Source: a virus (taxonomy: Duplodnaviria; Heunggongvirae; Uroviricota; Caudoviricetes). From it: a DNA stretch of 64,000 bases. The stretch lies in the IMG/VR virus record IMGVR_UViG_3300032335_000499. One strand, written 5' to 3'. Positions 18,469-35,669 of this stretch are shown here, in pieces. The notes under the pieces were generated by a model. It searched no databases, was not told where the DNA came from, and saw only the letters and a program-made list of their open reading frames with translations. The position numbers and the translations under genes were made by a program. How positions within the stretch are numbered: the stretch's first letter is position 1; each line of letters starts with the position of its first letter.

Positions 18469-18543
18469 TGGAGCGGATGATGGGATTCGAACCCACGACC
18501 TTCTGCTTGGCAAGCAGAAGCTCTACCCCTGAGCTACATCCGC
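18469..18543 (-). tRNA. tRNA-Gly(GCC)
   Basis: Cloverleaf read by eye: GCGGATG acceptor, GGTTCGAATCC T-arm, anticodon loop TTGCCAA, CCA encoded. Confidence 0.75.
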
Positions 18544-18668
18544 GCTCTAACTTATAGACACATACGTCCTGCACAGCTGGATAGGCATTTATCGTCTTTG
18601 ACAGCAGTCCTAGTATGTATAATGATATGTGCCGTCCCCGGAATGTTTCACATAACATCGTCTAACTC

Positions 18669-18742
18669 TGGAGCGGAATGCGGGAATCGAACCCGCCTAG
18701 CTAGCTTGGAAGGCTAGTGCATTACCACTATGCTAATCCCGC
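18669..18742 (-). tRNA. tRNA-Gly(TCC)
   Basis: T-arm GGTTCGATTCC; anticodon loop CTTCCAA. Confidence 0.7.
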
Positions 18743-18752
18743 ATTCTATAAT

Positions 18753-18828
18753 TGGTTGCGCAGAGGAGAGTCGAACTCCTAGCGATAGGTTATGAGCCTA
18801 TCATGTTACCGTTACACTACCGCGCGCC
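18753..18828 (-). tRNA. tRNA with CAT anticodon (Met / fMet / Ile-lysidine), copy 1
   Basis: anticodon stem ATAGG/CCTAT loop CTCATAA; T-loop TTCGACT; acceptor pairing imperfect in my reading. Confidence 0.55.
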
Positions 18829-19298
18829 ATTTTTCTTTAAAACTATTTTGAAGAACACACTATAAACTCTACTGCGTAATATGCCGAAACGCCCATAGAG
18901 TCAGTCTTTCGGTCCACACTGTAGTGTATTCATCAAAATAGTCTAATATTATTTAGTCTATTTATAACCCACCCTGAGATTACGGGCTTGTAGCGAGAGT
19001 CTTTGGTCATTACCGAATCCCTTGCGAGGACCGTTCTACCGTTATCCACTAGGGCTTTTTACAGTCACCTAGTAACTCTCAATGCTGCCTTTTTTAGAGT
19101 CTGGCGTTTGACTCGTCGCATATGTCTACTCGACCATCTATCTTTCGCTAGCCTTGCGGGCTATTCAAGGTCGCTAAACCCTTACGCTTTCTTTCCGATC
19201 AATCAGTTCAGCCTTGCGAGCCTTCCTGAACCACATTCCCTTGCGAGTGAGGTATTAAGCATCTTTAAACATATACCGGAGCAGACTTTCGCTTTTGT

Positions 19299-19369
19299 AG
19301 TGCAATACAGGAGTTGAACCTATATCGATTCCTTATTATGGAATTGACTTACCATTAGTCAAATTGCGA
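19299..19369 (-). tRNA. degenerate tRNA-like element (intact D, anticodon and T arms; loop ATAATAA, acceptor with 2 mismatches) - possible pseudo-tRNA
   Basis: GACT/AGTC D-stem, ATTCC/GGAAT anticodon stem, ATAGG-TTCAACT-CCTGT T-arm; no CCA. Confidence 0.25.
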
Positions 19370-20194
19370 ACCTACCAAGATGTGCTGCTCCAGTTGCTCC
19401 ATATCTTGTTAGATACAGAATACAACACACCTTATGTCTTTTGCCTTGCGGGCTACTCAACCATACTTCACGAATCCAGCACAGCACCCTCAGGTCTATA
19501 CTTTCTTCGCTTGTATTGCTATCTTGCCTTTCCTTGCGAGGTCAGACTCAATAACTACCTGTTAACTTTCAATATTCATCAGTTTAGCTGTACTTCGTGA
19601 GGGCGCTAACCCTCTTAACTCCTCAGCGTTGCCCTGGAGCCTATCCCTTTCGGGACGTTCGTACCTGACTTACTACCTACCGCCTTTCTACGGACGGGCC
19701 TTTCGGCTAGTTCAGGCTTGCATAGATGGACCATTGCTGGCGCAAGTTTATAGGAAACCTTGCTTTGACAGAGATTACTCCCTGCTACCCTAGTGAGGCT
19801 ATGCCCCCAATTTCTATTCAATTTTCAAAGAACAAAGACAATCTCTTGTCTTGATTTACTCATTATATCAAAGTTCGTAACGTTTGTCAAGAACTATTTC
19901 GCCTATTTGCAAAAAAAGTTTGGAAGAGAAAAAGTAAGTGATAGACAATGCAATACACAGCGACCCGACCGTACGGTCAAAGTCTACGGACACTAAACAC
20001 TACACAATCTGCAAAAATAACGTATCTCTAAGCGGCAACTCACAAATCTGAATAAAGCTTAGTTCATGCTATTATGGAGCGTTTCAAGCGCCTGATCGGT
20101 ACAGTATCTCCGATACCAGGGTGTCTACTCTCGTCTCTCTTTCTCTTCCTGGTAGCGTCCTCAAGATGGAGTCAGAAGGAACGCTACCAAACTC

Positions 20195-20757
20195 TTAGAT
20201 GATGTCCTCAGACTTGAGAACTTCAACTGTGCTTGTAGCAAGTTCAATTGTAGTGCGAACATTGGCTTCAAGCAACGCATCCTGGACAGCTTGCTTCTTC
20301 TTCTTAGCAAGTGAAACATTGTTTCGGAAGCTTTCCAAATCAGTTTCAGTAAAGATAGAAGTGCTTACTTCGCTTGAATGGAAGCTGTAGCTTTCACCCT
20401 CACGATTAGCAATCTTGTCAAGCTTACCGCTGATGACCTTAAGGTCAGTCTGAACATTTGCCTTAGCAAACGGTGCAAAGAACACGAGGTCCTTTTCAAT
20501 GCGGGCAAGATCGGCAAGAAGGTTGTCGATGTTGTTCTCTGCATTAGCAGTAGCAACCTTAGTGCGAATGTCATAGAGCGCGGAAATTAGATTCCAACGG
20601 CGCTGAACATTGCGGTCAAACTTCTGCTTAGTAAGTTCAATTTCCTGAGCAGGAGTCTGGAACTCGTTGATGCTAACATCAGCCTTAAATTCCAAACCCT
20701 TGAGGGCTTCGTTGATTAAAACTTGAAGTGCATTGGCTTTGCGTAGTGAAACTTGCA
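20195..20757 (-). CDS. hypothetical protein (start moved to MQVSLRKANAL; track N-terminus overlaps tRNA-Asp)
   Basis: AGAGGAAAGAA SD upstream of ATG ~20757. Confidence 0.45.
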
Positions 20758-20777
20758 TTTTTCTTTCCTCTATAAAA

Positions 20778-20854
20778 TGGCGACTCGTACGGGACTTGAA
20801 CCCGTGGCCTCTAGCGTGACAGGCTAGCGATCTAACCAACTGATCTAACGAGCC
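20778..20854 (-). tRNA. tRNA-Asp(GTC)
   Basis: anticodon stem CTAGC/GCTAG loop CTGTCAC; T-arm GGGTTCAAGTCCC. Confidence 0.7.
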
Positions 20855-20920
20855 ATTAAACTCTTTATATACTTCTTATAATGTATTCTAAAACGATAGT
20901 CAATCGTTTTGGGTAAACTT

Positions 20921-20995
20921 TGGTGACGCGGGGTAGAATTGAACTACCGACATGGAGCTTATGAGACTCCTGTTCTACCACTGAACTACCGCGCC
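20921..20995 (-). tRNA. tRNA with CAT anticodon, copy 2
   Basis: anticodon loop CTCATAA; T-arm GGTAGTTCAATTCTACC. Confidence 0.65.
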
Positions 20996-21020
20996 ATTAA
21001 TAAAGGGTGTGTCAAGGATT

Positions 21021-22238
21021 TTACCCCTTGACACAAACTACCTGCTTCAACGTATGAACGATTTCTACAAGGTCAGACTGTGCAGCCATAACTGCATCAA
21101 TGTCCTTGTACGCATTTGGCGTTTCGTCAATAACGTCTGCGTCCTTGCGGCACTCAACCCCTGCCGTAGCAGCGATATGGTCCTCAATAGTGAAACGCTT
21201 CTTCGCTTCGGTACGGCTCATAGAGCGTCCAGCACCGTGTGAACACGAACTGAACGATTCACGATTACCCTTGCCGCGAACGATGAATGACTTTGCACCC
21301 ATTGAACCAGGGATGATTCCCAGTTCGTCCTTCTTAGCTGACACTGCACCCTTACGAGTAAGCAGAATGTCTTCACCGAAGTGACGCTCATGCGATACAT
21401 AGTTGTGGTGACAGTTAACTGCCATCATTTCACTATAGAACGGCTTCGTAATTACTGACTTGATAGCAGCAATAGTTGCTTCCATCATCACTTCACGATT
21501 GCTACGAGCAAAACGCTGTGCCCAAGACACTGCTTGCATGTAGTCGTTGAAGTGGTCAGTACCTTCTGCTAGATAGGACAAGTCCATGTCTGGCAGATTG
21601 ATGAACCACTTACGCATATCCTGCTTAGCAAGTTCAATGAAGTAGGAACCGATACGATTACCTACACCACGAGAACCTGAGTGCAACATGATCCAAACAT
21701 AATCATCTTCATCAAGACAAATCTCTACGAAGTGATTGCCGGAACCAAGCGTACCTAAGTGATACGGAGCCCGTTCAGCAGCCTGACTAATCTTAGGATG
21801 CTTTGCTACAATTTCTGAAAGCACAGGTAAATGTGCAACAAACTTAAGTGCAACTGCATTAGAATAATCACTGAATGCACCACGGTCATTCTTGCCACCG
21901 TTATCAGTACGACCATGTGGGACTCGTGCTTCAATCGCAGAGCGAATGCCGAACAGGTTGTCGGGCAAATCTTCTGCACGAAGGTTAGTACGATGAGCCA
22001 TCATGCCGCAACCGATATCAACACCGACTGCTGCTGGAATAATTGCGCCCTTAGTCGGAATAACCGAACCAACAGTCGCACCCATTCCCCAATGAACGTC
22101 AGGCATAATTGCTACGTGCTTGTGAATGAAGGGCATAGCAGCAATATTGTCAAGCTGGGCGCGGGCTTGATCCTCAACGGACACGCCGTCAATCCATGCC
22201 TTAATAAGACCGCCCTTGTTTCCTTGAATTACTTGCAT
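21021..22238 (-). CDS. rtcB: RtcB-family RNA 3'-phosphate/2',3'-cyclic-phosphate ligase
   Basis: 405 aa; conserved RtcB blocks MPDVHWGMGATVGS, GCGMMA, HNYV, CSHGAGRSMSR; AGGAAG RBS. Confidence 0.8.
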   Translation of the reverse strand: MQVIQGNKGGLIKAWIDGVSVEDQARAQLDNIAAMPFIHKHVAIMPDVHWGMGATVGSVIPTKGAIIPAAVGVDIGCGMMAHRTNLRAEDLPDNLFGIRSAIEARVPHGRTDNGGKNDRGAFSDYSNAVALKFVAHLPVLSEIVAKHPKISQAAERAPYHLGTLGSGNHFVEICLDEDDYVWIMLHSGSRGVGNRIGSYFIELAKQDMRKWFINLPDMDLSYLAEGTDHFNDYMQAVSWAQRFARSNREVMMEATIAAIKSVITKPFYSEMMAVNCHHNYVSHERHFGEDILLTRKGAVSAKKDELGIIPGSMGAKSFIVRGKGNRESFSSCSHGAGRSMSRTEAKKRFTIEDHIAATAGVECRKDADVIDETPNAYKDIDAVMAAQSDLVEIVHTLKQVVCVKG

Positions 22239-22302
22239 AACTACTTCCTTTAAAAAATGGATGGGCAGTTTACCGTCTTACCCAGGACCCTGTTTTTAAA
22301 AT

Positions 22303-22396
22303 AGGGGGAAAGTAGGGACTTGAACCCTAATAACACCGCTGTCACGGCTGCTCTATGATGACAGTCATAAAGCTGTTACGCACCGTACCCTTCCCC
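22303..22396 (-). tRNA. type-II (long variable arm) tRNA-like gene with non-canonical anticodon arm; identity unresolved
   Basis: 8-bp-capable acceptor GGGGAAGG/CTTTCCCC, T-arm TAGGGTTCAAGTCCCTA, long extra arm; anticodon region TTTATGACTGTCATCATAG folds with 6- or 8-nt loop, not 7. Confidence 0.4.
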
Positions 22397-22402
22397 GTTA
22401 AC

Positions 22403-22478
22403 TGGTAGACGATGTAGGATTCGAACCTACGACCTAGGGATTAAGAGTCCCGCGCTCTACCGACTGAGCTAATCGTCC
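22403..22478 (-). tRNA. tRNA-Lys(CTT)
   Basis: anticodon loop CTCTTAA; T-arm GGTTCGAATCC. Confidence 0.65.
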
Positions 22479-22517
22479 ATATAACAACTTAGAAGAACAC
22501 TGTAGAACCGTCGTTCT

Positions 22518-22588
22518 ATAATACTACTGGATTCGAACCAGTTACTCGTCCTTTCGAGGCAGGAAGTCTCCAATGCTTCTCAGTATTC
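22518..22588 (-). tRNA. tRNA-like remnant (good acceptor/D/T arms, no foldable anticodon stem), 7-nt tandem duplication agtattc at 5' end
   Basis: GAAG/CTTC D-stem, ACTGG-TTCGAAT-CCAGT T-arm, but anticodon region TGCCTCGAAAGGACG does not pair. Confidence 0.25.
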
Positions 22589-22748
22589 AGTATTCATCTA
22601 AACTGTTACAAGCAACAAGAAGCCGGTGCACTTAGCAATTCAGCAATTTACGAAACACCATTCGGGGCTTCTCGTCACTTGATATATTCACTATAACGTA
22701 CTTCTTGTTGATTGTCAACCAAAAAATGACCTTTTTCAAAGATAATTG

Positions 22749-24251
22749 TTACCAGCCCTTAAACCAGTAACTAAGCACTGCCTCAGCAGGCTTGTTTCGG
22801 ATACTAGCTGAAAAATCGTAACAAGTATCATTAAGTGTGTCTTTTTTTCTAGGGTTATCCAAATAGTGATATCCCCAGCTAAATATTCCTTTTATGATCC
22901 CTGAACCATCCGACCTTTGCTCATTGACAATTTCAGCAGCAGATTGATAAATGTCAGCTTGCACCTGATAGTCTCTTGTCTTATTGTTAAATTCAGAGCA
23001 ACGTAACCCAGACTCTATATAATCACTTGAAACCAATCCAGTATGAACTGAAGGCGTTCCGATCATAAGAAGAATAGGAACCTTTGCAGAAGAAATCGAT
23101 GCAATATGTTTCTTAATGTCTTTAGTGAGTTTAGTGCGTGATTGGGCAGCATGTAGTGTTTCGTTATTATCAGGAATGATTGGATTATAGAGACTCAACC
23201 CAATCTCATCAAAAAGATCAATAAAAGCGGTTCGCTTATTAACATCAGAAATCCCAAGCAAGCCATTATATGAACCGTTGGTCATAGAAAAATAAGATAT
23301 TTTTCCAGTAAACCCAGCCTCCCTGATAGCTTTGATAAGTTCAATCCATCTAGAATTTCCCTTATTTACCATGTAGTCCATATTAAAACCAATTACAAGT
23401 CTTGTTGCACCAGCTTGTTGTGCTAAAGCTGCTCTATCAACTAGTATCCTCTTATATTCACTAAACCACCTATCCCAGAAGGGGTCATTATCAGAAAGTT
23501 GACTGATGGCAGAATAGAACTTTGGAACGTCCCATGGATCATTTCCGAGAGTATCTCCGGGATAGATTCCCATCATAACTGTAAAATCCATACCCCGTGA
23601 TCTGGCTAAGTTACCCATATCCAAAATCACTTGATTAGCTGGAAAATATTTACCGTACAACTCAACTGACCGAGAATTAACATTCATTGATTTAATGAAT
23701 GCAGAATCAGCATAAACAACATTATTTCCACCAATGCTCTTTATTCTGTCAAAGGTAGTGGGGAAATATCCTCCATTGTAATAATCCATCAGCCAACCGC
23801 CAGCATCGTGCGGAACAATTGCTTTTGTAAAGTTTGGCTGTCTATTAATCGTATTGGCTTTGTACAAGCCGAGTTGTATCGGCGTGCTATCGTGTGATGT
23901 GTATGGGTACCAAGTTGGTTGATACCCTAATTTGTTCACGGAAAGCTGAGAGTATTCGCCGGTAGACTTCGGCGTTTCAACATTGACTGTTTCTTGAGTT
24001 AGACTTGCAATAGCTGACGTAACCGATGCTGGATGAGAGACTGTTGACAATCTTTCATATGTCTGTATATCTACAGGTGTTGTCTGAGGAACAGCAGGAG
24101 CTGGAGTAGGCAGCGCAACTGATGTCGTTGTTGGTATTTGTACAAAATTTGAACTAGTAGAAGACGTATCGCCGCCGCAACCACTGAGTGCTAATACTCC
24201 AGCAGCCGCCGCCATCATCAAAGTTGTTTTGTTCATACACGCTACTTTCAT
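22749..24251 (-). CDS. large secreted lipoprotein (start moved; lipobox LALSGC), possible polysaccharide-active enzyme
   Basis: Signal peptide plus lipobox; Thr/Pro-rich linker then ~420-aa globular domain; track N-terminus LVTHFAIVKYKL is translation of promoter cassette. Confidence 0.45.
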   Translation of the reverse strand: MKVACMNKTTLMMAAAAGVLALSGCGGDTSSTSSNFVQIPTTTSVALPTPAPAVPQTTPVDIQTYERLSTVSHPASVTSAIASLTQETVNVETPKSTGEYSQLSVNKLGYQPTWYPYTSHDSTPIQLGLYKANTINRQPNFTKAIVPHDAGGWLMDYYNGGYFPTTFDRIKSIGGNNVVYADSAFIKSMNVNSRSVELYGKYFPANQVILDMGNLARSRGMDFTVMMGIYPGDTLGNDPWDVPKFYSAISQLSDNDPFWDRWFSEYKRILVDRAALAQQAGATRLVIGFNMDYMVNKGNSRWIELIKAIREAGFTGKISYFSMTNGSYNGLLGISDVNKRTAFIDLFDEIGLSLYNPIIPDNNETLHAAQSRTKLTKDIKKHIASISSAKVPILLMIGTPSVHTGLVSSDYIESGLRCSEFNNKTRDYQVQADIYQSAAEIVNEQRSDGSGIIKGIFSWGYHYLDNPRKKDTLNDTCYDFSASIRNKPAEAVLSYWFKGW

Positions 24252-24267
24252 TTTTAGCTTATATTTT

Positions 24268-24296
24268 ACTATAGCAAAATGGGTAACCAATGTCAA
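24268..24296 (-). promoter_or_regulatory. sigma70-like promoter TTGACA-N17-TATAGT (gcaaaatgggta subfamily)
   Basis: revcomp of actatagcaaaatgggtaaccaatgtcaa. Confidence 0.5.
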
Positions 24297-24311
24297 CCGG
24301 TTTTATAGATT

Positions 24312-24387
24312 TGGTGGACACTCCGGGGCTCGAACCCGGGACCAACAGGTTAAAAGCCCGTTGCTCTACCTACTGAGCTAAGTGTCC
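24312..24387 (-). tRNA. tRNA-Lys(TTT)
   Basis: acceptor GGACACT/AGTGTCC, anticodon loop CTTTTAA. Confidence 0.7.
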
Positions 24388-24393
24388 GTTGTA

Positions 24394-24468
24394 TGGTGTG
24401 CATGGCAGGATTTGAACCTGCGACCTACGCCTTATCAGGGCGGTGCTCTACCGCTGAGCTACACGCAC
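24394..24468 (-). tRNA. tRNA-Ile(GAT)
   Basis: anticodon loop CTGATAA; T-arm GGTTCAAATCC. Confidence 0.7.
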
Positions 24469-24474
24469 GTAAAC

Positions 24475-24556
24475 TGGAGCACCGAGTAGGAATCGAACCT
24501 ACTTCACTTGCGTAGCGGATTTGCAGTCCACCGCATTCCCAATCTGCCATCGGTGC
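24475..24556 (-). tRNA. tRNA-Cys(GCA), unusually long (12-nt) variable loop
   Basis: anticodon stem GTGGA/TCCGC loop CTGCAAA; T-arm GTAGGTTCGATTCCTAC. Confidence 0.6.
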
Positions 24557-24626
24557 ATTAAACTTTATATATTAGTTATATCAACATTCAGGACGAATGT
24601 CAACCGTTTTTATGTTATTAGCGAAA

Positions 24627-25775
24627 TTAAATTACACGAATTAATGATGCTGCCTCGCGGGCGCTTTCAAGTGTATCACCTAGTACAACACCCATGCGAC
24701 GATATTTACGCACAAATGGTTTACCAAAAATTCTAACATCAATTCCTTCAATGTTCATAGCATCTTCGATGCCTTCATATTTTGGTGCATGATCGCTATT
24801 ATCTTGATACAGTACTACAGCACTTGCGCCACCGTTGCAATTCAAATCTGTGGCGTTAATCGGCAATCCTAATACTGCACGAGCATGAAGGTCAAACTCG
24901 GAATACCGTTGACTACGCAATGTAACCATGCCAGTATCATGTGGGCGAGGGCTAAGTTCGCTAAAGATAACTTCGTCATCCCTGATGAAGAACTCAACTC
25001 CAAACAGTCCAGCACCACCAAGATCATCAGTGATAATCTCAGCCATAGCTTGCGCCTGGGCAATTATTGAATTAGTATACTCTACGTTGTTAGGGATAAA
25101 CGGTTGCCAGCTATACTGGTAATCGCCGCGTTCCTGAACATGACCTATTGGTTCACAAAAAAGTGTAGGACCCGTATGTTGCTTAATAGTCAGCAATGTG
25201 ATTTCAGCATCAAACTTAATGAACTCCTCAACGATAACCTTCTTACGATCACCGCGCATATTGTTCACAGCATAATCCCATGCAACTTGCGCTTCCTCTG
25301 AATTGTGAACTACACTCTGTCCCTTGCCAGAACTTGACATTACTGGCTTAACTACGCAGGGAAAACCGATATTTAATACTGCCTGAGTAAACTCATCTAC
25401 ATTCTCTGCATAACCAAACTTTGCAGTACGCAGACCTAATTCATCGGCGCGGTCACGAATCTTATCGCGGTTCATAGTAAGATTGACTGCACGAGCAGAA
25501 GGAACTACTTGAATTCCGTTTGCTTCATAGTCATAAAGAACTTCCGTTGCTATTGCTTCAATCTCAGGAACAATAATATCTGGCATCCAAGCGTCTATAA
25601 TTGTATCCAATTGGTTTGAGTCAAGCATATTAATAACAACATTACGGTCAGCAACCTGCATTGCAGGAGCATCGGTGTAGCTGTCAACTGCGATAACAAA
25701 ATGTCCAAGACGTTTAGCAGAAATAACAAATTCCTTACCAAGTTCACCTGAACCCAATAGCATAATAGTTTTCAT
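24627..25775 (-). CDS. purT: formate-dependent phosphoribosylglycinamide formyltransferase (PurT)
   Basis: Strong block matches to E. coli PurT: LLGSGELGKE, IVPEIEAIAT, VVKPVMSSSGKGQ, LFGVEFF, IFSELSPRPHDTGM; start moved to MKTIML (track extension is tRNA-Ser read-through). Confidence 0.75.
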   Translation of the reverse strand: MKTIMLLGSGELGKEFVISAKRLGHFVIAVDSYTDAPAMQVADRNVVINMLDSNQLDTIIDAWMPDIIVPEIEAIATEVLYDYEANGIQVVPSARAVNLTMNRDKIRDRADELGLRTAKFGYAENVDEFTQAVLNIGFPCVVKPVMSSSGKGQSVVHNSEEAQVAWDYAVNNMRGDRKKVIVEEFIKFDAEITLLTIKQHTGPTLFCEPIGHVQERGDYQYSWQPFIPNNVEYTNSIIAQAQAMAEIITDDLGGAGLFGVEFFIRDDEVIFSELSPRPHDTGMVTLRSQRYSEFDLHARAVLGLPINATDLNCNGGASAVVLYQDNSDHAPKYEGIEDAMNIEGIDVRIFGKPFVRKYRRMGVVLGDTLESAREAASLIRVI

Positions 25776-25793
25776 ATTTTCTCCAGAAGTGTT

Positions 25794-25885
25794 TGGCGGA
25801 GAGTGAGGGATTCGAACCCTCGGTACCAATTTCTCAGTACGCCTTCTTAGCAGGAAGATGGTTTCAGCCACTCACCCAACTCTCC
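25794..25885 (-). tRNA. tRNA-Ser(GCT)
   Basis: acceptor GGAGAGT/ACTCTCC, anticodon loop CTGCTAA, long variable arm. Confidence 0.7.
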
Positions 25886-25895
25886 GTATTCTTAT

Positions 25896-26624
25896 TTATT
25901 TCTCTACGAATGCTCTCTCAAGAACATAATCGCCGGGCTCTCGCAACGAACCTTCTGTCATTCCGTTATTCTTGCACCACTCTGCAACTTCATGATTGAA
26001 GTCAAGATTGCCGCAAATCATAATCTTATCCTTAGTAGGGTCAATCTGCAATGTATCGCCTAGTTGTGCTGTGATACGCTTGCCACCTTCTCCGGTTACA
26101 ATAGGTATATAGTTCAGCACAGGCTTAACCATTTCTTCTAAATCGTCGCCTACGAATCCAGTTGACAGCAAATCATAGTACGCCAAATCATCACGACTAC
26201 GAACACTATGAACAATATGAATCTTTTCCCATGTTTCAAGCGTTTCAACATCACGAATCAAACTCATAAACGGAGCAAGACCGGTGCCAGTAGCTAACAG
26301 ATACAATTCGCCGCCCTTGTTCAGAGCATCGTTGCGTAGCGTACCAGTTGTCTTAGGATTCAATACTACTTCGTCACCTACTTGAATATGCTGTAGTTTG
26401 CTTGTAAGCTGACCATCTGGAATCTTAATGCTCAAGATTTCAAGTTCATCTGCCCAAGGAGGACTGACTACGCTATACGCTCTCAACACATTCTTACCAT
26501 CAATGTTAAGCCCGCACATAGCAAACTCGCCTGCGTTAAACTTGAAAGTTTGACTACGAGTGGTCTTAAAACTAAATGTTCGGTCACTCCAATGCTGGAC
26601 CCATGTAACTTTTTCAGTAATCAT
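25896..26624 (-). CDS. fpr: ferredoxin/flavodoxin-NADP+ reductase (Fpr family)
   Basis: Collinear with E. coli Fpr: RAYS FAD-binding motif, LLATGTGLAPF NAD(P)-binding motif. Confidence 0.7.
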   Translation of the reverse strand: MITEKVTWVQHWSDRTFSFKTTRSQTFKFNAGEFAMCGLNIDGKNVLRAYSVVSPPWADELEILSIKIPDGQLTSKLQHIQVGDEVVLNPKTTGTLRNDALNKGGELYLLATGTGLAPFMSLIRDVETLETWEKIHIVHSVRSRDDLAYYDLLSTGFVGDDLEEMVKPVLNYIPIVTGEGGKRITAQLGDTLQIDPTKDKIMICGNLDFNHEVAEWCKNNGMTEGSLREPGDYVLERAFVEK

Positions 26625-27028
26625 TATATACCTAAATGTTGTTTGGCGTTTTCAATATAGCCAATAATTCTTTCTTTGCCTGCTGGATTCATGGAGTGAA
26701 CAATGTACGGAGGAAACTTCTTGTTCTTTTCGGCACAGTAATCTACTAGCCATTTAGCGCAATCGTATCCAGTCTTTTCAGAACCATAGTCTACGATTGT
26801 CTCTAGCTGTTTCACTGGATCACTTTCGTTTTCTTTAAGCATAGCAGCATAGTGGTCATCGGCTAAGTCATGGTCAAAGCATACGAAACCCGGAACACCG
26901 CTAAGCATAATGTGCTTAACAAATGCATTGTAGTTTCGTACAGTAAAAATCATTTCATCACGAGGAAACATTTCCCATGTCACATCGTCTGGATTTCGAA
27001 CATCGTCAAGAAATAGTACGTATGACAT
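26624..27028 (-). CDS. small receiver-like protein resembling the cyclic-phosphate-processing REC-like (cREC) domain found next to RNA-repair genes
   Basis: Motifs VLFLDDVR, FDHDL, GYDCAKWL, IVHSMNPAG; start moved to MSYVLF (track extension is tRNA-Ser read-through); assignment from memory of motif pattern, not searched. Confidence 0.4.
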   Translation of the reverse strand: MSYVLFLDDVRNPDDVTWEMFPRDEMIFTVRNYNAFVKHIMLSGVPGFVCFDHDLADDHYAAMLKENESDPVKQLETIVDYGSEKTGYDCAKWLVDYCAEKNKKFPPYIVHSMNPAGKERIIGYIENAKQHLGI

Positions 27029-27046
27029 TATGAGCCTTTCTAATGC

Positions 27047-27136
27047 TGGAGGAAGCGGTGGGATTCGAACCCACGGTACTCTTTCAAGTACGCTGGTTTT
27101 CAAGACCAGATCATTAAACCGCTCTGACACGCTTCC
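27047..27136 (-). tRNA. tRNA-Ser(TGA)
   Basis: acceptor GGAAGCG/CGCTTCC; anticodon loop CTTGAAA; long variable arm. Confidence 0.7.
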
Positions 27137-27182
27137 GTATTGTTATTTAGATGTTATAGCATTACCTATATTTTTTATCAAG

Positions 27183-27878
27183 CTATTTTGGAACGTGTTG
27201 AAAATCAATAAAACTCAATGATTCTAGTTGCTTTCGTAACTCACCGTTTCCGTTCGACTTCTTTTCTATCTTAAAGCACTTGCTATATACTGTGTATGAA
27301 GTATCTACTTCTTGACAAAACTGCCAAAGTGCATTGTAAAGAGGAGCGGAATGAACATCGTCTCCGAATATGTAACCACCGTCTTTAACTATGCCCCATG
27401 CATATCTCAAGTCATTTAATACATCTTCATACGTATGGGATGCATCAACGAATACTAAGTCAATATTTTCAAGTTTTAAGTCTGTGCTGTTTCCTAAATG
27501 AGAAATGATATTAGGATAGTCTTCGATATGTAGCTTCCTAATTTCCAGCACATCTTCTACTGATATCCCCAGCAAACCATATGTTTCTTGTATCGTTACT
27601 ATCATCGGGTTCTCAGCGAAGTGGCCAAAATCTGGATTGATAATCGTATCGCCGAAAGTATCAATATCAATTGTGTGTATCGTTATATTAGGATTGGCTT
27701 GTGCAAACAATCGTGTTGTCCCGCCGACAAACGTTCCCATTTCTAAAATAATAGAGCCGGGCGGAAGTGTCTTCACAGTGTCGATAACAAACTGTATCGC
27801 CCAAGGAAACACACAACAATGCGGTGACATAATAATTTTGGCTTTTATTGATTCTCTGTTAGTGTCGTTTATGTTCAT
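27183..27878 (-). CDS. class I SAM-dependent (O-)methyltransferase
   Basis: ILEMGTFVGGTT glycine-rich SAM motif I, FVDASH motif; start uncertain. Confidence 0.5.
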   Translation of the reverse strand: MNINDTNRESIKAKIIMSPHCCVFPWAIQFVIDTVKTLPPGSIILEMGTFVGGTTRLFAQANPNITIHTIDIDTFGDTIINPDFGHFAENPMIVTIQETYGLLGISVEDVLEIRKLHIEDYPNIISHLGNSTDLKLENIDLVFVDASHTYEDVLNDLRYAWGIVKDGGYIFGDDVHSAPLYNALWQFCQEVDTSYTVYSKCFKIEKKSNGNGELRKQLESLSFIDFQHVPK

Positions 27879-27893
27879 GCTTATATTTATACG

Positions 27894-27968
27894 TGGTACT
27901 CCCGGAGGGACTCGAACCCCCAACCAAATCCTTATGAGGGATCGGCTCTACCATTGAGCTACAGGAGT
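27894..27968 (-). tRNA. tRNA with CAT anticodon, copy 3
   Basis: acceptor ACTCCTG/CGGGAGT; anticodon loop CTCATAA. Confidence 0.65.
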
Positions 27969-27974
27969 ATTGTT

Positions 27975-28059
27975 TGGTGGGCCGGTGAGGTATCGATCCT
28001 CCCCCGAAGACGGACGAGATTTACAGTCTCGCTGCTAGAGCCACTAGCTTTACCGACCC
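27975..28059 (-). tRNA. tRNA-Tyr(GTA)
   Basis: anticodon stem CGAGA/TCTCG loop CTGTAAA; long variable arm; unusual T-loop ATCGATA. Confidence 0.6.
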
Positions 28060-28066
28060 TTAAACT

Positions 28067-28282
28067 TTATAGAAATTGATGGAGCCAACCATCAGCGAAT
28101 GTTTTTACCTCATCATCTGCGGCAAAATATGCATCCGCGTTGTTGATTGCGTCAATAGTGTCAAGAATGTCTTCATCATCAACACCCTGTTCACGCAAAC
28201 TATCTAGATAAGCAGTAAGGCTATCAGGCACTTCCTGTGCATCGTTCTTCTTACCAAATTCAACATGAATTACGTTGCTCAT
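28067..28282 (-). CDS. small acidic hypothetical protein
   Basis: ORF only. Confidence 0.3.
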   Translation of the reverse strand: MSNVIHVEFGKKNDAQEVPDSLTAYLDSLREQGVDDEDILDTIDAINNADAYFAADDEVKTFADGWLHQFL

Positions 28283-28311
28283 GATTGGCTCCTTAGATTA
28301 GTTGTAATCCT

Positions 28312-28560
28312 TTATTTGCACTTCTCGTTTTCACCCAATACAGTGCCATCACCGCAAGGGCCGCCAGTTTGTTCTGCTGGAGCAGTAACTTCAACACGAT
28401 CATCAGCGGATGCGCCGACTTCGGGTGCAGTTACGTCAGCATTAGCAGCTTCGGTAGCGGCAGCTTCGGTAGCAGTTACTTCTGCTGGTGCTTCTGCGGT
28501 GCCGCAAGCAGCAAGAGTAGTCAACGCTGCGATTGCAGCAATAGTAGTAATAGTCTTCAT
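28312..28560 (-). CDS. small Ala/Glu-rich secreted lipoprotein
   Basis: Signal peptide with lipobox LAAC. Confidence 0.4.
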   Translation of the reverse strand: MKTITTIAAIAALTTLAACGTAEAPAEVTATEAAATEAANADVTAPEVGASADDRVEVTAPAEQTGGPCGDGTVLGENEKCK

Positions 28561-28634
28561 GTACTTTCCTTTTGTTTTTGGATCCTTAAGTGGATCAAAC
28601 TATTTATATAGTACGCAAATGCTACTAAAAAGAA

Positions 28635-28719
28635 TGGTGCGAGTAGCCGGACTCGAACCGGCACGCCACAAGGACACAAGATTTTAAGTCTCGGGCGTCT
28701 ACCAATTCCGCCATACTCG
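28635..28719 (-). tRNA. tRNA-Leu(TAA)
   Basis: acceptor GCGAGTA/TACTCGC; anticodon loop CTTAAAA; long variable arm. Confidence 0.7.
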
Positions 28720-28831
28720 CATAAAACATTTTTCACCAACGATGAGAAAGAACATAGAAAGTTTTGTTGCTCTCTATGTTCTTACTATACGACATGTTGA
28801 GGGTAATGTCAAGAACTATTTTCAAAAATTT

Positions 28832-28907
28832 TGGCACGGGAGGAGGGACTCGAACCCCCGGCACTCGGTTTTGGAGACCGATGCTCTACCAACTGAGCTA
28901 CACCCGT
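28832..28907 (-). tRNA. tRNA-Trp(CCA), copy 1
   Basis: anticodon stem TCGGT/ACCGA loop CTCCAAA. Confidence 0.6.
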
Positions 28908-28913
28908 ACTTAA

Positions 28914-29306
28914 TTAAAAAGTGATTACGCCACTGTCAATGACAGGGTGTTCATCGTCTGTGCGATCAACAACGGTGTAAGTGAACTTATAGGTTCCAAG
29001 TTCCTTTAGCATTTCTGCTACAGACTCAAGTGCAAAATCTTTGCACGAGTACAAATCAAACTTGTAATAACTCGGTTCACCTGACCAGAAATGTATTGAT
29101 GAGTGACTAGTGGTAATACCCACCATCCCTGTTACGCCTTCGTTACCCTTGTCGTTACACCATACACAGATGGGATCAATTAAGACCGTCATGTCAACTG
29201 CTTCAACTAATCGCTTGAACCAATCTTCAAGAAAAGTAACGTACTCCGCTTGTGGAGCTTCATTTAGATATCCTGTAACTAGGATGTGCTTATTAACCTG
29301 TGCCAA
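28914..29306 (-). CDS. speH: S-adenosylmethionine decarboxylase proenzyme (small pyruvoyl SpeH type)
   Basis: GITTSHSSIHFWSGE...YKFDLYSCKDF aligns with Bacillus SpeH IISESHLTIHSFPEH...IDVYTCGDL (self-cleavage Ser context). Confidence 0.55.
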   Translation of the reverse strand: MAQVNKHILVTGYLNEAPQAEYVTFLEDWFKRLVEAVDMTVLIDPICVWCNDKGNEGVTGMVGITTSHSSIHFWSGEPSYYKFDLYSCKDFALESVAEMLKELGTYKFTYTVVDRTDDEHPVIDSGVITF

Positions 29307-29385
29307 CTCATAAAATCCTTTCCAATATTAATTTTACTGTCAGATAGCGAATGATTATTTATCATTATATACGTAGATTTAAAAA

Positions 29386-29460
29386 TGGTACCTCGTGACG
29401 GGATTGAACCGCCGACCTTATCCGTGTAAAGGATCTGCTCTACCGCTGAGCTAACGAGGC
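29386..29460 (-). tRNA. tRNA-Val(TAC)
   Basis: anticodon loop TTTACAC; T-arm GGTTCAATCC. Confidence 0.65.
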
Positions 29461-29470
29461 ACAAAATCAG

Positions 29471-29785
29471 TTAATCAAACTTATTCATCAAGTCATCTGT
29501 TAACTTTTGATTAACAAGGGTATGACATTTTTTACTAAGTTCAAGAAATCTTTGTCCAACATGAGAGTGTTGTGTATTAACAAGTCGTTCTCCCATTATT
29601 TGAAGGCGGCTTCCGATAATAGCAATGACACCATCAGTAGGTTCTTTGTTCGTGAACCTCAATCGTCTCAAATAGGCCTCACTTTGACCTAACCAGTGTT
29701 CACTGAATTGGTTTTCAGCCTCAACAAGTTTTTGCTGTTTCAAAAAATCAAAAATCTCTAAAACTACGGTACTATTTTTCATCAA
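29471..29785 (-). CDS. hypothetical protein (104 aa)
   Basis: ORF only. Confidence 0.35.
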   Translation of the reverse strand: MMKNSTVVLEIFDFLKQQKLVEAENQFSEHWLGQSEAYLRRLRFTNKEPTDGVIAIIGSRLQIMGERLVNTQHSHVGQRFLELSKKCHTLVNQKLTDDLMNKFD

Positions 29786-29800
29786 TCTTCTTTCAAAAAA

Positions 29801-29877
<77 letters not shown>

Positions 29878-29892
29878 AAAACTTTAATTACT

Positions 29893-30096
29893 TTACTTTG
29901 AATCTGCTTGAATGGCAGAACCAGTAGCATCTACCTTTTCGCCAAGAACAACTACTTCTCCCTTTTCACATTCAACAGTTACATCACCACGTTGAATGGC
30001 AGTTGCGAAACCGTAACCAGTTAACCCGCCAGCAATTAAAAGTCCGATAACTACACCGGCTGCAAACTTAGCTGCATCAATTAAAAATTTCTTCAT
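29893..30096 (-). CDS. small membrane/secreted protein
   Basis: hydrophobic N-terminus; ORF. Confidence 0.3.
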   Translation of the reverse strand: MKKFLIDAAKFAAGVVIGLLIAGGLTGYGFATAIQRGDVTVECEKGEVVVLGEKVDATGSAIQADSK

Positions 30097-30125
30097 ATTC
30101 TACATTATCCTATATGCTTGTTATT

Positions 30126-30201
30126 TGGTGGAGAATAGCGGGATCGAACCGCTGACCTCCTGAATGCAAATCAGGCGCTCTCCCATCTGAGCTAATTCCC
30201 C
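30126..30201 (-). tRNA. tRNA-Ala(TGC)
   Basis: anticodon stem CCTGA/TCAGG loop TTTGCAT. Confidence 0.7.
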
Positions 30202-30244
30202 ATGAAACTATTTATAACTTACTTACTCATCAATCAAAAAAGAA

Positions 30245-30321
30245 TGGTGACCCTGGCAGGGCTCGAACCTGCAACCCCAAGTTTAGAAGACTCGTACTCT
30301 ATCCAGTTGAGCTACAGGGCC
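30245..30321 (-). tRNA. tRNA-Arg(TCT)
   Basis: anticodon loop CTTCTAA. Confidence 0.7.
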
Positions 30322-30403
30322 AATCTCTTGTTATGAATTAACTATATCAATAATATGAAAAGAAGTCAAGAGCTTTTGGGTACTGCTCTTGACTTCTTAT
30401 AGA

Positions 30404-30480
30404 TGGTGCCCCCAGTAGGATTCGAACCCACGACATCCTGATTACAAATCAGGCGCTCTGGCCAACTGAGCTATAAGGGC
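30404..30480 (-). tRNA. tRNA-Thr(TGT)
   Basis: anticodon loop TTTGTAA. Confidence 0.7.
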
Positions 30481-30488
30481 ATTAAGTT

Positions 30489-30563
30489 TGGCTCCCTAAG
30501 ATGGATTCGAACCACCGACCAATTGATTAACAGTCAACTGCGCTACCGCTGCGCCATTAGGGA
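30489..30563 (-). tRNA. tRNA-Asn(GTT)
   Basis: acceptor TCCCTAA/TTAGGGA; anticodon loop CTGTTAA. Confidence 0.7.
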
Positions 30564-30614
30564 ATAAACTCTATAAACTATTTAATCTTGTTATAGCAGC
30601 TTGACAAATAAATG

Positions 30615-30809
30615 TCAAGCCGCTAATTGCGCTACGCAGTAATACCGAACCTCTATGTTTATAGAAGCTTCAAGCGCATACTTGTATCTCTCACCTGTAT
30701 CCTTGCACATTTCAATAGACTCTTGTGGCATATTGTCTTGCCACAAGAGTTCTACCTTCTTAGTGCTAGGATTCATATAGAATACATAAGCTATCAGTAG
30801 TATTTTCAT
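30615..30809 (-). CDS. small hypothetical protein
   Basis: ORF, promoter-like tgtcaag upstream. Confidence 0.3.
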   Translation of the reverse strand: MKILLIAYVFYMNPSTKKVELLWQDNMPQESIEMCKDTGERYKYALEASINIEVRYYCVAQLAA

Positions 30810-30840
30810 ATACTACTCTTAACATATTATTAACTATATG

Positions 30841-31407
30841 TCAAGCCGCTAATTGAACAATTCTACTGTGTTTGGGCACACCGCTCAACAGATACTCCAT
30901 TTGGTCAGCAAGGATGCTGCGATTCTGGAGAATCATGTTTTCGTAGTGGTTGGGCGCATACGGAATGTATAACAGTTCCATACCTGATTGCTTCAAACTC
31001 TTACAGCCCTTCTTTTGGTTGCAAGGAATACAAGCAGTAACAACATTAGTCCATTCGTCAATACCACCGTGGTACCTAGGTACAATGTGGTCTCGACTTA
31101 ACTTAGCGTGATTGTTAATGTGAACACCACAGTAACCACAAATGTTACGATCACGAGCGAACAGAGTTTTGTTAGTCAAGATAACCTTGTTGTGCTTCTT
31201 GAAGTTGAAACCCTCACCTTTAATAGCGATAATGCTAGGAGTTTCAAGATAACTCTGCGTACCATCAATTCGATAGCCGCCTCGATATCTAGCAATTACA
31301 TCGCCCAGTGTCCAACCTACCAAGTTCTTTGCGTGATACGAAATTGCTTCGTCGTGGGAGACCCACGTTCGCGGGGTACCCGATATGTCTAAGGCTAGTA
31401 CTGCCAT
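30841..31407 (-). CDS. HNH endonuclease
   Basis: CGYCGVHINNHAKLSRDHIVPRYHGGIDEWTNVVTACIPCNQKKG (HNH with flanking Cys pairs). Confidence 0.65.
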   Translation of the reverse strand: MAVLALDISGTPRTWVSHDEAISYHAKNLVGWTLGDVIARYRGGYRIDGTQSYLETPSIIAIKGEGFNFKKHNKVILTNKTLFARDRNICGYCGVHINNHAKLSRDHIVPRYHGGIDEWTNVVTACIPCNQKKGCKSLKQSGMELLYIPYAPNHYENMILQNRSILADQMEYLLSGVPKHSRIVQLAA

Positions 31408-31503
31408 AAAAACTCCTATTTCTTTCTATATTTAATTCAACTGATATTCCTTAGTGTCAGTTTACATTACATCAGATTGACCTCATTGTCAACTAGAATC
31501 TGC

Positions 31504-31589
31504 TGGTGCCCAAGAAAAGACTCGAACTTTCACGGGCTTTCGCCCACAACGACCTCAACGTTGCGTGTCTACCATTCCACCACCTGGGC
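31504..31589 (-). tRNA. tRNA-Leu(GAG)
   Basis: anticodon stem CAACG/CGTTG loop TTGAGGT; long variable arm. Confidence 0.65.
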
Positions 31590-31593
31590 ATAT

Positions 31594-31685
31594 TGGTACT
31601 CCTGCTCGGATTCGAACCGAGACCGATCCCTAATCTGGGCTTCGGGATATAAATCCGACCGCTCTAACCATTAAGCTACAGGAGT
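31594..31685 (-). tRNA. tRNA-like gene with ~17-nt expansion of the anticodon region (possible TAT anticodon, tiny intron, or pseudo-tRNA); acceptor identical to CAT tRNA at 27894..27968
   Basis: ACTCCTG/CAGGAGT acceptor, GCTT..GAGC D-arm, perfect CTCGG-TTCGAAT-CCGAG T-arm, 38 nt between D- and T-arms. Confidence 0.35.
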
Positions 31686-31686
31686 A

Positions 31687-32355
31687 TTAAATTTTAAATG
31701 TGAATGCAAAAGATACAGTGTTGTCTTCAATCCGATCCTTTGTATACAAGTCTTGAATTGAGAAACTTGTTTTCTCACTCAATTTGTATTTGATTTCTGC
31801 TTTATTCTGAATGAAGGTTCTAGAACCCTGCTCAATCATGAACTTATTAGATACAGATAGTGCTTTGCTTAGATTATGACTAATCCATACACTTTCACGA
31901 ACTACTACATCGCTGTATCCACCCGTGCCGTGCTTGTAACCAACGCTAAGTTCGTTTGATATCTTAGTCTTATCATTCTTTACGATTCTGAAACCGTGAC
32001 CAATGCTATAAACTGCTTGATCTTCTGAGAATGTTCTTGGATCGTGACGATAGCGAACACCTGCTTGAACATAGTGCTTAGGATGAATGTCCTGATTGAT
32101 TTTAGCAAATGCGTTAATCTGCTCTCTAGAAGTTACGCCGTTAGCACTCTTATAAAGAATGTCACTCTCAAATGAGTATTCTCTAGGGCCCGTGTCAGTA
32201 ACGTGCTTGAATGCTCCTGTCAAAACAATGTTATCGTCATTGATAACTGTTCCGCCTAATGAACCCGTTGTTTCTCTCTCAACCTGAGCATATGCAGGTA
32301 AAGAAAATAATAATGCTGCTGATAGTATAAGTGTTCTAAACATAGTAATCTCCAA
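31687..32355 (-). CDS. outer-membrane beta-barrel protein (OmpA/OmpW-like small porin family) with signal peptide
   Basis: Signal peptide ending AYAQ; alternating hydrophobic beta-strand pattern; C-terminal FTFKI. Confidence 0.5.
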   Translation of the reverse strand: MEITMFRTLILSAALLFSLPAYAQVERETTGSLGGTVINDDNIVLTGAFKHVTDTGPREYSFESDILYKSANGVTSREQINAFAKINQDIHPKHYVQAGVRYRHDPRTFSEDQAVYSIGHGFRIVKNDKTKISNELSVGYKHGTGGYSDVVVRESVWISHNLSKALSVSNKFMIEQGSRTFIQNKAEIKYKLSEKTSFSIQDLYTKDRIEDNTVSFAFTFKI

Positions 32356-32372
32356 ACTACTATTTAGCAGTT

Positions 32373-32458
32373 TGGTGCCCCGAGAGGGACTTGAACCCCC
32401 ACGCCTTTTGGGCAGAAGATTTTGAATCTTCCGCGTCTACCGATTCCACCATCGGGGC
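32373..32458 (-). tRNA. tRNA-Leu(CAA)
   Basis: anticodon stem GAAGA/TCTTC loop TTCAAAA; long variable arm. Confidence 0.7.
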
Positions 32459-32561
32459 AAATTGGTATCGGTTCAGCAGTTCAGGTTCTAGTTATAGTGA
32501 CCCTCATAGTGTGCCTTGAAGCATCGTTCTAGACCGATGACTTCTTCCGATTTCTGAATTT

Positions 32562-32646
32562 TGGTGCGGCTGAAGGGACTCGAACCCCCACACCTTACGA
32601 TACTGGTACCTAAAACCAGGGCGTCTACCAATTCCGCCACAGCCGC
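32562..32646 (-). tRNA. tRNA-Leu(TAG)
   Basis: anticodon stem CTGGT/ACCAG loop TTTAGGT; long variable arm. Confidence 0.7.
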
Positions 32647-32799
32647 ATGTTAAATGTATTTACTCGCCGTAACTAGTGTCTCAAATTTAGTTACTGATAC
32701 TAACTCAATAGTACTGCTACGGACATCAGGTACACTCCTGTTTGGTTTGAGAATGAAACAGGGTCACATATGGTCACCGTACACACACGAGTAAAATTA

Positions 32800-32875
32800 T
32801 GGTGCCTCCCCAGGGAATCGAACCCCAACCTCTGCTTCTTCAGAGCAGCGCGCCAACCATGTACGCCAGAGAGGC
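32800..32875 (-). tRNA. tRNA-Phe(GAA)
   Basis: anticodon stem CTGCT/AGCAG loop CTGAAGA. Confidence 0.7.
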
Positions 32876-32881
32876 ATTAAA

Positions 32882-33508: not shown

Positions 33509-33593
33509 ATAATATTTAGCCTAAAGAAAAAGAAGGTTACTTTTTAAATCTTCGCAACTTATCCTGCGTAAATACATGATAACGGAGAATAAA

Positions 33594-34403: not shown

Positions 34404-34413
34404 ATATTTAATA

Positions 34414-34488
34414 TGGTAGCCCGAACGGGTTCCGACCCCGCTTCTCTGCCTTGAAAGGGCAGTGTCCTAGCCACTAGACGACCGGGCC
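34414..34488 (-). tRNA. tRNA-Glu(TTC)
   Basis: Closely resembles E. coli tRNA-Glu (TCGTCTAGTGGCTAGGACACTGCCCTTTCAAGGCAG); anticodon loop CTTTCAA. Confidence 0.7.
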
Positions 34489-34562
34489 ATAATCTCTCGG
34501 GGCCTGCACAGCCCCTTCCCCCGTAACAATTGTGCAGTATCCCAGGGAGTACCTCTATAAAT

Positions 34563-34639
34563 TGGTCGGGGTAGCCGGATTTGAACCGACGACCACTTGT
34601 CCCCCAGACAAGTGCGCTACCTGGCTGCGCTATACCCCG
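34563..34639 (-). tRNA. tRNA-Pro(GGG)
   Basis: C1-G72 acceptor CGGGGTA/TACCCCG; anticodon loop CTGGGGG. Confidence 0.7.
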
Positions 34640-35114: not shown

Positions 35115-35189
35115 TGGTACACCCTACTGGGCTTGAACCAGTGACCTTCTGGATGTCGACCAGATGCTCTACCACTGAGCTAAGGGTGC
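35115..35189 (-). tRNA. tRNA-Val(GAC)
   Basis: anticodon loop TCGACAT. Confidence 0.65.
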
Positions 35190-35196
35190 ATAAAAC

Positions 35197-35274: not shown

Positions 35275-35280
35275 ATAAAC

Positions 35281-35662: not shown

Positions 35663-35669
35663 ATTAACT

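Follow-up and report, generated by a model that had tools for sequence, protein, structure and literature searches.

An RtcB RNA ligase and a cREC receiver-domain protein in the tRNA array of a jumbo phage are probably independent accessory genes

Introduction

Defences that cleave transfer RNA (tRNA), among them PrrC, RloC, PARIS, retron effectors and Schlafen-like nucleases, now count as one of the main branches of immunity in bacteria. The tRNA arrays of phages are in turn being reinterpreted as an answer to such defences (PMC10264068, PMC11555353). Among the described systems closest to the locus considered here are the Pnkp and Rnl1 pair that phage T4 sets against PrrC, and the RtcB ligases of bacterial rtcBA and rsr-yrlA-rtcBA operons, in which tRNA fragments are implicated (PMC7790460). 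Here we analyse 64,000 nucleotides of the IMG/VR virus record IMGVR_UViG_3300032335_000499 (hereafter the window), in which an rtcB gene and a gene for a cyclic-phosphate processing receiver domain (cREC) protein stand 4.4 kb apart in an array of tRNA genes. We argue that these are probably two independent accessory genes, one encoding a stand-alone counter-defence ligase that reseals tRNA and the other a phosphoesterase conserved in this phage lineage.

RtcB carries out both the cyclic phosphodiesterase step and the ligation of 3'-phosphate to 5'-OH ends unaided (PMC3458531). It is a routine annotation in phages, being present in 660 of 50,697 phage records, and jumbo phages of Pseudomonas, Erwinia, Ralstonia and Caulobacter encode RtcB at 60-66% identity to the protein described here.

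Up to 18% of jumbo phages encode a cREC domain. Computational studies have described its receiver-like topology, noted that it does not occur in two-component systems and linked it to RNA repair, to RNA ligases and to NAD/ADP-ribose genes; they also report RtcB in jumbo phages (PMC7824862, PMC9503650). Clearing of cyclic ends for RNA ligases has been proposed as one role (PMC7824862, PMC9503650), for ATP-dependent ligases and not for RtcB (PMC7824862); breakdown of ADP-ribose cyclic phosphate has been proposed as a second by the authors who call the domain 'experimentally uncharacterized' (PMC9503650).

Results and Discussion

RtcB is intact and retains the catalytic residues of its family

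The minus strand is the coding strand for every gene of the region, and the positions of its features are collected in Table 1. The rtcB start codon is preceded at 6 nt by a Shine-Dalgarno sequence, AAGGAAG. The encoded protein matches Pfam PF01139 over profile positions 1-426 of 426 (E=4.2e-131; 438.5 bits against a cut-off of 27) and PHROG 1075, 'tRNA splicing ligase', at 496 bits, and it carries the motifs CHHNY at residue 276 and SHGAGR at residue 333. Alignment with the crystallised Pyrococcus PH1602 and Thermus TTHA1785 enzymes revealed conservation of all metal and nucleophile positions of P. horikoshii RtcB: D47/H49, D74, C77, N168/H169, H186, H278 and H334, of which those from D74 onward correspond to D95, C98, N202/H203, H234, H329 and H404 of the archaeal enzyme. 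With family membership and catalytic residues intact, the phage protein is a candidate for an active ligase.

In its compact bacterial form of about 405 aa, full-length family match and complete catalytic residues, this RtcB resembles those of bacteria and other phages (PF01139; PHROG 1075); it differs in its setting, as its gene is inserted between two array tRNA genes and is present or absent among close strains. Pfam scans of about 70 open reading frames (ORFs) of the window found no Pnk, Rnl, RtcA, Archease, Ro, Sir2, Macro, KptA or Nudix gene. The window differs from the rtcBA and rsr-yrlA-rtcBA operons, with which it shares the ligase family, in having no RtcA cyclase, RtcR regulator or Ro protein match, nor an Archease or Ro/Y-RNA partner, and from T4 in having no polynucleotide kinase, HAD phosphatase or ATP-dependent ligase among the ORFs scanned.

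The G+C content of rtcB is 47.5%, as compared to 41.5% for the window and 39.3% for the cREC gene, and RtcB is 75% identical to cellular RtcB proteins, for example that of Tardibacter. The higher G+C content and this identity suggest that rtcB was recently acquired.

The cREC protein has a predicted receiver fold

The second gene encodes a protein that matches Pfam cREC_REC PF20274 (E=3.8e-18; 66.4 bits against a cut-off of 27), with the motifs LDDVR at residue 7, FDHDL at residue 51 and VHSMNP at residue 110. Its ATG gives a product of 134 aa; a longer GTG start at 27130 would overlap the tRNA-Ser gene at 27047..27136. Sequence search detected no solved structure for cREC. An AlphaFold model built with 46 homologues (predicted local distance difference test score, pLDDT, 90.2; predicted template modelling score, pTM, 0.83) has four strands and predicts a receiver (CheY-like) fold, providing the first structure-based support for this fold in cREC. 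In the model, invariant residues follow the strands: D8 and D9 lie right after strand 1 (residues 3-7), D52, followed by H53 and D54, right after strand 3 (residues 48-51), and H111 and S112 right after strand 4; D8, D9 and D52 are invariant both in 24 and in 46 homologues. The Asp-Asp and Asp-His-Asp residues would thus form a pocket at the location of the receiver acidic pocket, with a geometry predicted from the model. A poorly conserved helical insert of 20-45 residues separates FDHDL from EKTG.

The protein shares with the described cREC domain (PMC7824862, PMC9503650; PF20274) the receiver-like fold, the Asp pocket, a jumbo phage host, nearness to RNA-repair and translation-related genes, and the lack of a histidine kinase partner: no HisKA or HATPase match was found among the ORFs scanned, leaving cREC here with no two-component partner. 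By contrast, the variable helical insert, the fixed place in the tRNA array and the coupling to an Fpr-like gene (see below) set it apart from those accounts (PMC7824862, PMC9503650), and it is neither fused to Nudix nor beside Sir2 or 2H genes. RtcB is near it but non-adjacent, no NAD/ADP-ribose gene is found in the window, and these links vary among relatives.

Much of an initial annotation of this DNA is borne out by these results: it had named RtcB and a cREC-like protein from blocks of motifs, all of which are present, had asked for the two profile searches and a structure prediction that now agree with it, and had placed both genes within a tRNA array, as ARAGORN confirms. None of these matches is due to chance. 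The annotation's coordinates for the smaller gene were right and its length of 135 aa was one residue too long, the sole correction needed.

cREC and rtcB belong to different putative units

The tRNA calls of the array rest on ARAGORN, and Rfam supports 36 of the 37. The interval between the two genes holds six tRNAs; from rtcB to cREC the order is tRNA-like element, tRNA-Lys(CTT), GH113-like lipoprotein, tRNA-Lys(TTT), tRNA-Ile, tRNA-Cys, PurT, tRNA-Ser and Fpr-like reductase. The cREC stop codon overlaps the start codon of the Fpr-like gene (TAATG, read from the sequence), and cREC is thus predicted to be translationally coupled to this gene and not to RtcB. The cREC-Fpr pair is kept in six relatives (L004, L005, L008, L012, L092, L093; L numbers are our handles for loci) and not in L006. 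Three promoter-like sites of the form TTGACA-N17-TATAGT split the region and, as consensus matches, place cREC and rtcB in different putative units. These sites may represent the phage's own sigma-70-type promoter consensus; similar ones also stand ahead of rtcB in L010 and L011. The possibility that the PurT-like ATP-grasp protein between the two genes is a hidden RNA ligase was rejected, given its equivalog match to PurT (Table 1).

cREC is fixed and RtcB is polymorphic among close relatives

Metagenomic contigs of 330-360 kb share this placement of cREC (77-81% identity), which follows AdoMet decarboxylase, a small ORF and tRNA-Ser(TGA). In L092, whose cREC is 96% identical, the cREC, Fpr, PurT and GH113 genes are followed by tRNA-Lys(CTT) and the 60-nt leader of rtcB, which runs directly into tRNA-Met; the rtcB ORF is cleanly missing. 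The syntenic interval likewise contains no RtcB in L004, L094, L095 and L110, which keep the stretch from cREC to o187. In L012, L016 and L020, RtcB occupies the same slot as in the window, 7.5 kb from cREC and with tRNA-Lys(CTT) 63 nt ahead of it. In the 352-kb phage L006/L010 it is found outside the array, 4.5 kb past its end and 12 kb away from cREC, its neighbours in L010 being WYL_2 and Hydrolase_2 (cell-wall hydrolase) genes, and in the 179-kb contig L011 it lies 9.5 kb from cREC. Among close relatives, then, cREC is fixed and RtcB shows polymorphism of presence and of position. What is new here is modest: the fixed place of cREC in the tRNA array of a lineage, the clean insertion/absence polymorphism of rtcB, and a confident model of the predicted fold.

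RtcB and cREC rarely co-occur

For a wider view we surveyed the best 80 loci per search with flanks of 8-10 kb; among the IMG/VR RtcB loci, 57 of the 80 had at least 8 kb upstream. A cREC gene was found in five of the 80 best IMG/VR RtcB loci, four of the five belonging to this lineage, and RtcB lay within 10 kb in four of the 80 best IMG/VR cREC loci, all of this lineage. In bacterial genomes, none of 80 cREC loci had RtcB within 8 kb. Subfamily bias of the cREC hidden Markov model was rejected as an explanation, as a model rebuilt from 60 diverse representatives again gives five of 80. Isolate phages tell a similar story: RtcB is found in the 660 records mentioned above and cREC in 135, and the host genera barely overlap.

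Both genes are found near tRNA genes at other loci. A same-strand tRNA lies within 500 nt in 21 of the 80 viral RtcB loci, and at least five tRNAs accompany cREC in 37 of its 80 viral loci; at about 28 loci, several tRNAs stand no more than 1 kb away. At fourteen RtcB loci (L028, L030, L031, L033, L039, L041, L042, L052, L062, L065, L067, L070, L089, L090), whose RtcB is 65-75% identical to the one here, tRNA-Pro(TGG) is directly beside rtcB on the same strand.

The neighbours of cREC at loci without RtcB include a CCA-adding enzyme, PTH2 and NADAR. CBB-like phages have Nudix-cREC fusions beside Sir2, NAMPT and NMNAT and a small protein that is annotated as an RNA ligase and that we take as a 2H-type phosphoesterase. 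Most of the surveyed cREC loci of bacterial genomes are one conserved Chryseobacterium locus. In L223 (7417-11146), the one that we annotated, RNaseH_like (PF04308), cREC, an RNase_T exonuclease and a PIF1-like helicase follow one another, and about 60 other Chryseobacterium genomes (L178-L254) encode cREC at similar identity. A Flavobacterium genome encodes an NT5C nucleotidase-cREC fusion (L180, 7461-8390). Locus L223 and the NT5C fusion both point to cREC acting on phosphates of nucleotides or RNA 3' ends.

Two independent genes are the probable reading

The most reasonable reading of RtcB is that it reseals tRNA cut by anticodon nucleases. Metal-independent host tRNases would cut phage or host tRNAs into halves with 2',3'-cyclic-phosphate and 5'-OH ends; RtcB, variably present, recently acquired and presumably read from its own promoter with tRNA-Lys(CTT), would open the cyclic phosphate, activate the resulting 3'-phosphate with GMP via His334 and join it to the 5'-OH, with no healing enzyme taking part. 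Because RtcB opens 2',3'-cyclic phosphates itself, no healer would be required: one that yields a 3'-OH or 2'-phosphate would destroy the substrate of RtcB, and one that yields a 3'-phosphate would be redundant. The proposed purpose, restoring tRNA cut in the anticodon loop, is that of Pnkp and Rnl1 in T4, from which RtcB differs in sealing directly and in needing the very 3'-phosphate that Pnkp removes.

The cREC gene, in turn, belongs to the conserved backbone of this lineage's array, and its product would be a small phosphoesterase acting on a terminal or cyclic phosphate, either at a blocked RNA or tRNA 3' end or on an ADP-ribose-derived cyclic phosphate, in parallel to RtcB and not upstream of it. 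Its neighbours elsewhere fit an enzyme that would free a blocked phosphate, either at the 3' end of an RNA or on a nucleotide, independently of RtcB. We therefore regard two accessory genes of separate activity as the probable explanation of the locus. This is not a new kind of system, and the RtcB-cREC pairing is not a conserved unit. Nevertheless, RtcB among array tRNAs would be an obvious direct-sealing response to tRNA-cleaving defences, and near-identical phages that differ cleanly in having or lacking rtcB at this locus provide a natural polymorphism.

Several observations weigh against this explanation. Firstly, the two genes share a tRNA island in at least six relatives, and the intervening DNA of L011 also encodes a P-loop kinase, an ADP-ribosylglycohydrolase and a HAD_SAK_2 phosphatase, resembling a loose RNA-repair island. 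Secondly, the one co-occurrence outside the lineage, L083, is an unrelated viral contig in which a short cREC precedes RtcB by 1.8 kb in the same orientation, and operonic links of cREC to RNA ligase families have been reported (PMC7824862). Thirdly, the co-occurrence counts cover flanks of 8-10 kb at the best 80 loci, many of which are interrelated, the tRNA substrate and defence target of RtcB are ones that we infer, and we found no experimental work on phage RtcB or cREC in the literature.

Alternative explanations

An alternative that we hold to be possible, if somewhat unlikely, is that cREC is unrelated to RNA ends. It would instead degrade a small molecule, either a cyclic phosphate or a compound derived from ADP-ribose (ADP-ribose 1''-2'' cyclic phosphate and immune signalling nucleotides are examples), and the array would simply be a site for accessory genes. 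Such a role has been proposed (PMC9503650) and agrees with the Nudix-cREC fusions next to Sir2, NAMPT and NMNAT, with NADAR two genes away in L172, with an ADP-ribosylglycohydrolase nearby in L011 and L174, with the NT5C fusion and with the coupling in the window to an NADP-dependent reductase. However, the conserved neighbours of cREC in this lineage are tRNA genes, several of them within 1 kb at about 28 loci; elsewhere it stands beside a CCA-adding enzyme, PTH2 and RNase T-like exonucleases, and the scanned ORFs of the window include no Sir2, Macro, KptA or Nudix gene.

A related proposal, which we consider unlikely, is that cREC is a catalytic receiver-fold phosphoesterase unblocking damaged tRNA ends, and forms the constant part of a tRNA-maintenance kit of the array whose sealing and rebuilding enzymes are swapped according to the host tRNases met. 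The swapped enzymes would be RtcB here and the CCA-adding enzyme, PTH2 or RNase T-like trimmers elsewhere. If cREC does unblock tRNA ends, it would be the first receiver domain shown as an enzyme on RNA, and if it belongs to such a kit, the natural RtcB-plus and RtcB-minus strains would be a ready-made comparison.

The initial annotation had joined the two proteins in a candidate tRNA-repair counter-defence module, with cREC processing the cyclic-phosphate end and RtcB sealing it. The presence of both in one tRNA island here and in L008, L012, L016, L020, L010 and L011, the independent pairing in L083 and the proposal that cREC clears cyclic ends for RNA ligases (PMC7824862, PMC9503650) favour such a module. 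Nevertheless, the genes are non-adjacent and share no promoter-defined unit, with PurT, Fpr and GH113 genes between them; cREC is coupled to the Fpr-like gene, and RtcB varies where cREC is fixed, the closest cREC relative (L092) being cleanly without it. The expected co-occurrence across phages is likewise not borne out by the low counts given above (five, four and none of 80). Moreover, RtcB requires a 3'-phosphate or cyclic phosphate and hydrolyses the cyclic form itself (PMC3458531), and end clearing was proposed for a different class of ligase (PMC7824862). We thus think a two-enzyme module very unlikely. The accompanying remark that this is not a characterised phage system holds for experiments, of which we found none, and not for computational description, which already exists (PMC7824862, PMC9503650).

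Least probable of all is that RtcB has no counter-defence role and instead repairs ribosomal RNA (rRNA), joins phage RNA fragments (an interrupted tRNA-like transcript, or GOLLD RNA) or buffers damage from the phage's own nucleases: bacterial RtcB paralogues repair 16S rRNA (PMC9304027, PMC13166195), and rtcB is directly preceded by an odd tRNA-like element and followed 1.6 kb downstream by a GOLLD RNA, but the element is strain-specific and absent in other RtcB-bearing relatives, GOLLD is kept in relatives whose RtcB sits elsewhere, Pfam scans of window ORFs found no PrfH-like release factor or splicing endonuclease, and presence or absence among near-identical strains suits an arms-race accessory gene better than a required processing enzyme.

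A strain-specific tRNA-like element upstream of rtcB

The element between tRNA-Lys(CTT) and rtcB has a fold z of -3.65 and no Rfam tRNA match. Its acceptor stem is 8 bp long and its T stem 5 bp, the latter with a canonical T loop; the D arm is tiny, the 9-bp 'anticodon' stem bears the 6-nt loop CUGUCA, and the variable arm is long. No relative of it was found among about 1100 tRNAs, nor an exact match in IMG/VR, and it is a strain-specific insertion.

Four identities were considered for this element and rejected. A conserved substrate or partner of RtcB does not fit its precise absence in L012, L016 and L092; in L009 the RtcB is identical but another spacer precedes it, and the upstream spacers of L009 and L011 do not fold significantly (z -0.1 and -1.8, respectively). 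A tRNA-Sec is not compatible, by eye, with its D arm and anticodon loop. Replacement of tRNA-Tyr was dismissed on finding a divergent, foldable tRNA-Tyr elsewhere in the array (Table 1). Finally, a Y-RNA-like, Ro-linked element is not supported, as no TROVE protein was found and the single YrlA match is sub-threshold (25.8 bits against a gathering score of 69) and falls elsewhere, on ordinary tRNAs.

Other features of the tRNA island

Table 1. Positions of the main features in the window.
Feature	Position	Strand	Basis or remark
tRNA gene array	18469..36227	-	ARAGORN, 37 tRNA genes; accessory genes interspersed
11-bp hairpin over rtcB stop codon	21008..21035	-	terminator-like, weak T tail
rtcB, RNA 3'-phosphate/5'-OH ligase	21021..22238	-	405 aa, intact ORF
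Orphan non-canonical tRNA-like element	22304..22395	-	ARAGORN 'tRNA-???'; between tRNA-Lys(CTT) and rtcB
tRNA-Lys(CTT)	22403..22478	-	ARAGORN and Rfam; conserved upstream neighbour of rtcB
Promoter-like site TTGACA-N17-TATAGT	22690..22718	-	11/12 consensus positions; ahead of tRNA-Lys(CTT), tRNA-like element and rtcB
GH113-like predicted lipoprotein	22749..24251	-	Pfam GH113, 47 bits; lipoprotein-like N-terminus in translation
Two further identical promoter-like sites	28784-28812, 24268-24296	-	intergenic; consensus match alone
purT, formate-dependent glycinamide ribonucleotide (GAR) transformylase	24627..25775	-	NCBIfam equivalog NF006766, 539 bits against a cut-off of 339
Fpr-like ferredoxin-NADP reductase	25896..26624	-	Pfam FAD_binding_6 and NAD_binding_1
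cREC gene, stand-alone cyclic-phosphate processing receiver domain	26624..27028	-	134 aa from ATG
Divergent tRNA-Tyr(GTA)	27975..28059	-	alignment to relatives' tRNA-Tyr

The window is a tRNA and accessory-gene island of a jumbo phage of roughly 330-350 kb that is found in metagenomes only; megablast of the region against isolate phages returned just a patch of 81-83% identity within rtcB and no cultured relative. Genes elsewhere in the window encode tail-fibre-like lectin proteins, ribonucleotide reductase, MetK and QueC/QueF-like proteins. Besides PurT and the Fpr-like reductase, the metabolic genes of the island comprise those for S-adenosylmethionine (AdoMet) decarboxylase (28914-29306), AdoMet synthetase (48190-49335), a QueF-like protein (39139-39543) and a RimK-like protein (44374-45270). 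Phage-borne PurT is unusual. The Fpr-like protein scores 124 bits against NCBIfam PRK10926, which is under the cut-off, and the gene for the GH113-like lipoprotein is missing from L009 and L012. Just outside the array, a calcineurin-like phosphoesterase (14050-14616, minus strand; PHROG 547, 183 bits) is conserved in L006/L010; calcineurin-like phosphoesterases sometimes belong to RNA end-healing sets.

The GOLLD RNA (18971-19433, minus strand; Rfam RF02032, 203 bits) lies in the array and has a tRNA-like element embedded at 19299-19369, and its variable 5' half probably occupies the ORF-poor stretch that continues to about 20190. It is also found in the relative L010, at 4359-4820, and GOLLD near tRNA islands is already known (PMC12286853).

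The divergent tRNA-Tyr(GTA), overlooked by ARAGORN and Rfam, folds as a cloverleaf (z=-2.7) and has an encoded CCA and an unusual T loop, AUCGAUA. Ahead of tRNA-Lys(CTT), the leader that follows the promoter-like site (22520-22600, minus strand) contains a T-arm-like sequence, CTGGTTCGAATCCAG, with no callable tRNA, which is possibly a decayed tRNA gene. Finally, related viral contigs (L021, L114-L117, L124, L135, L165) carry tRNAs with a CTA anticodon, of amber-suppressor type and labelled 'Pyl' by ARAGORN.

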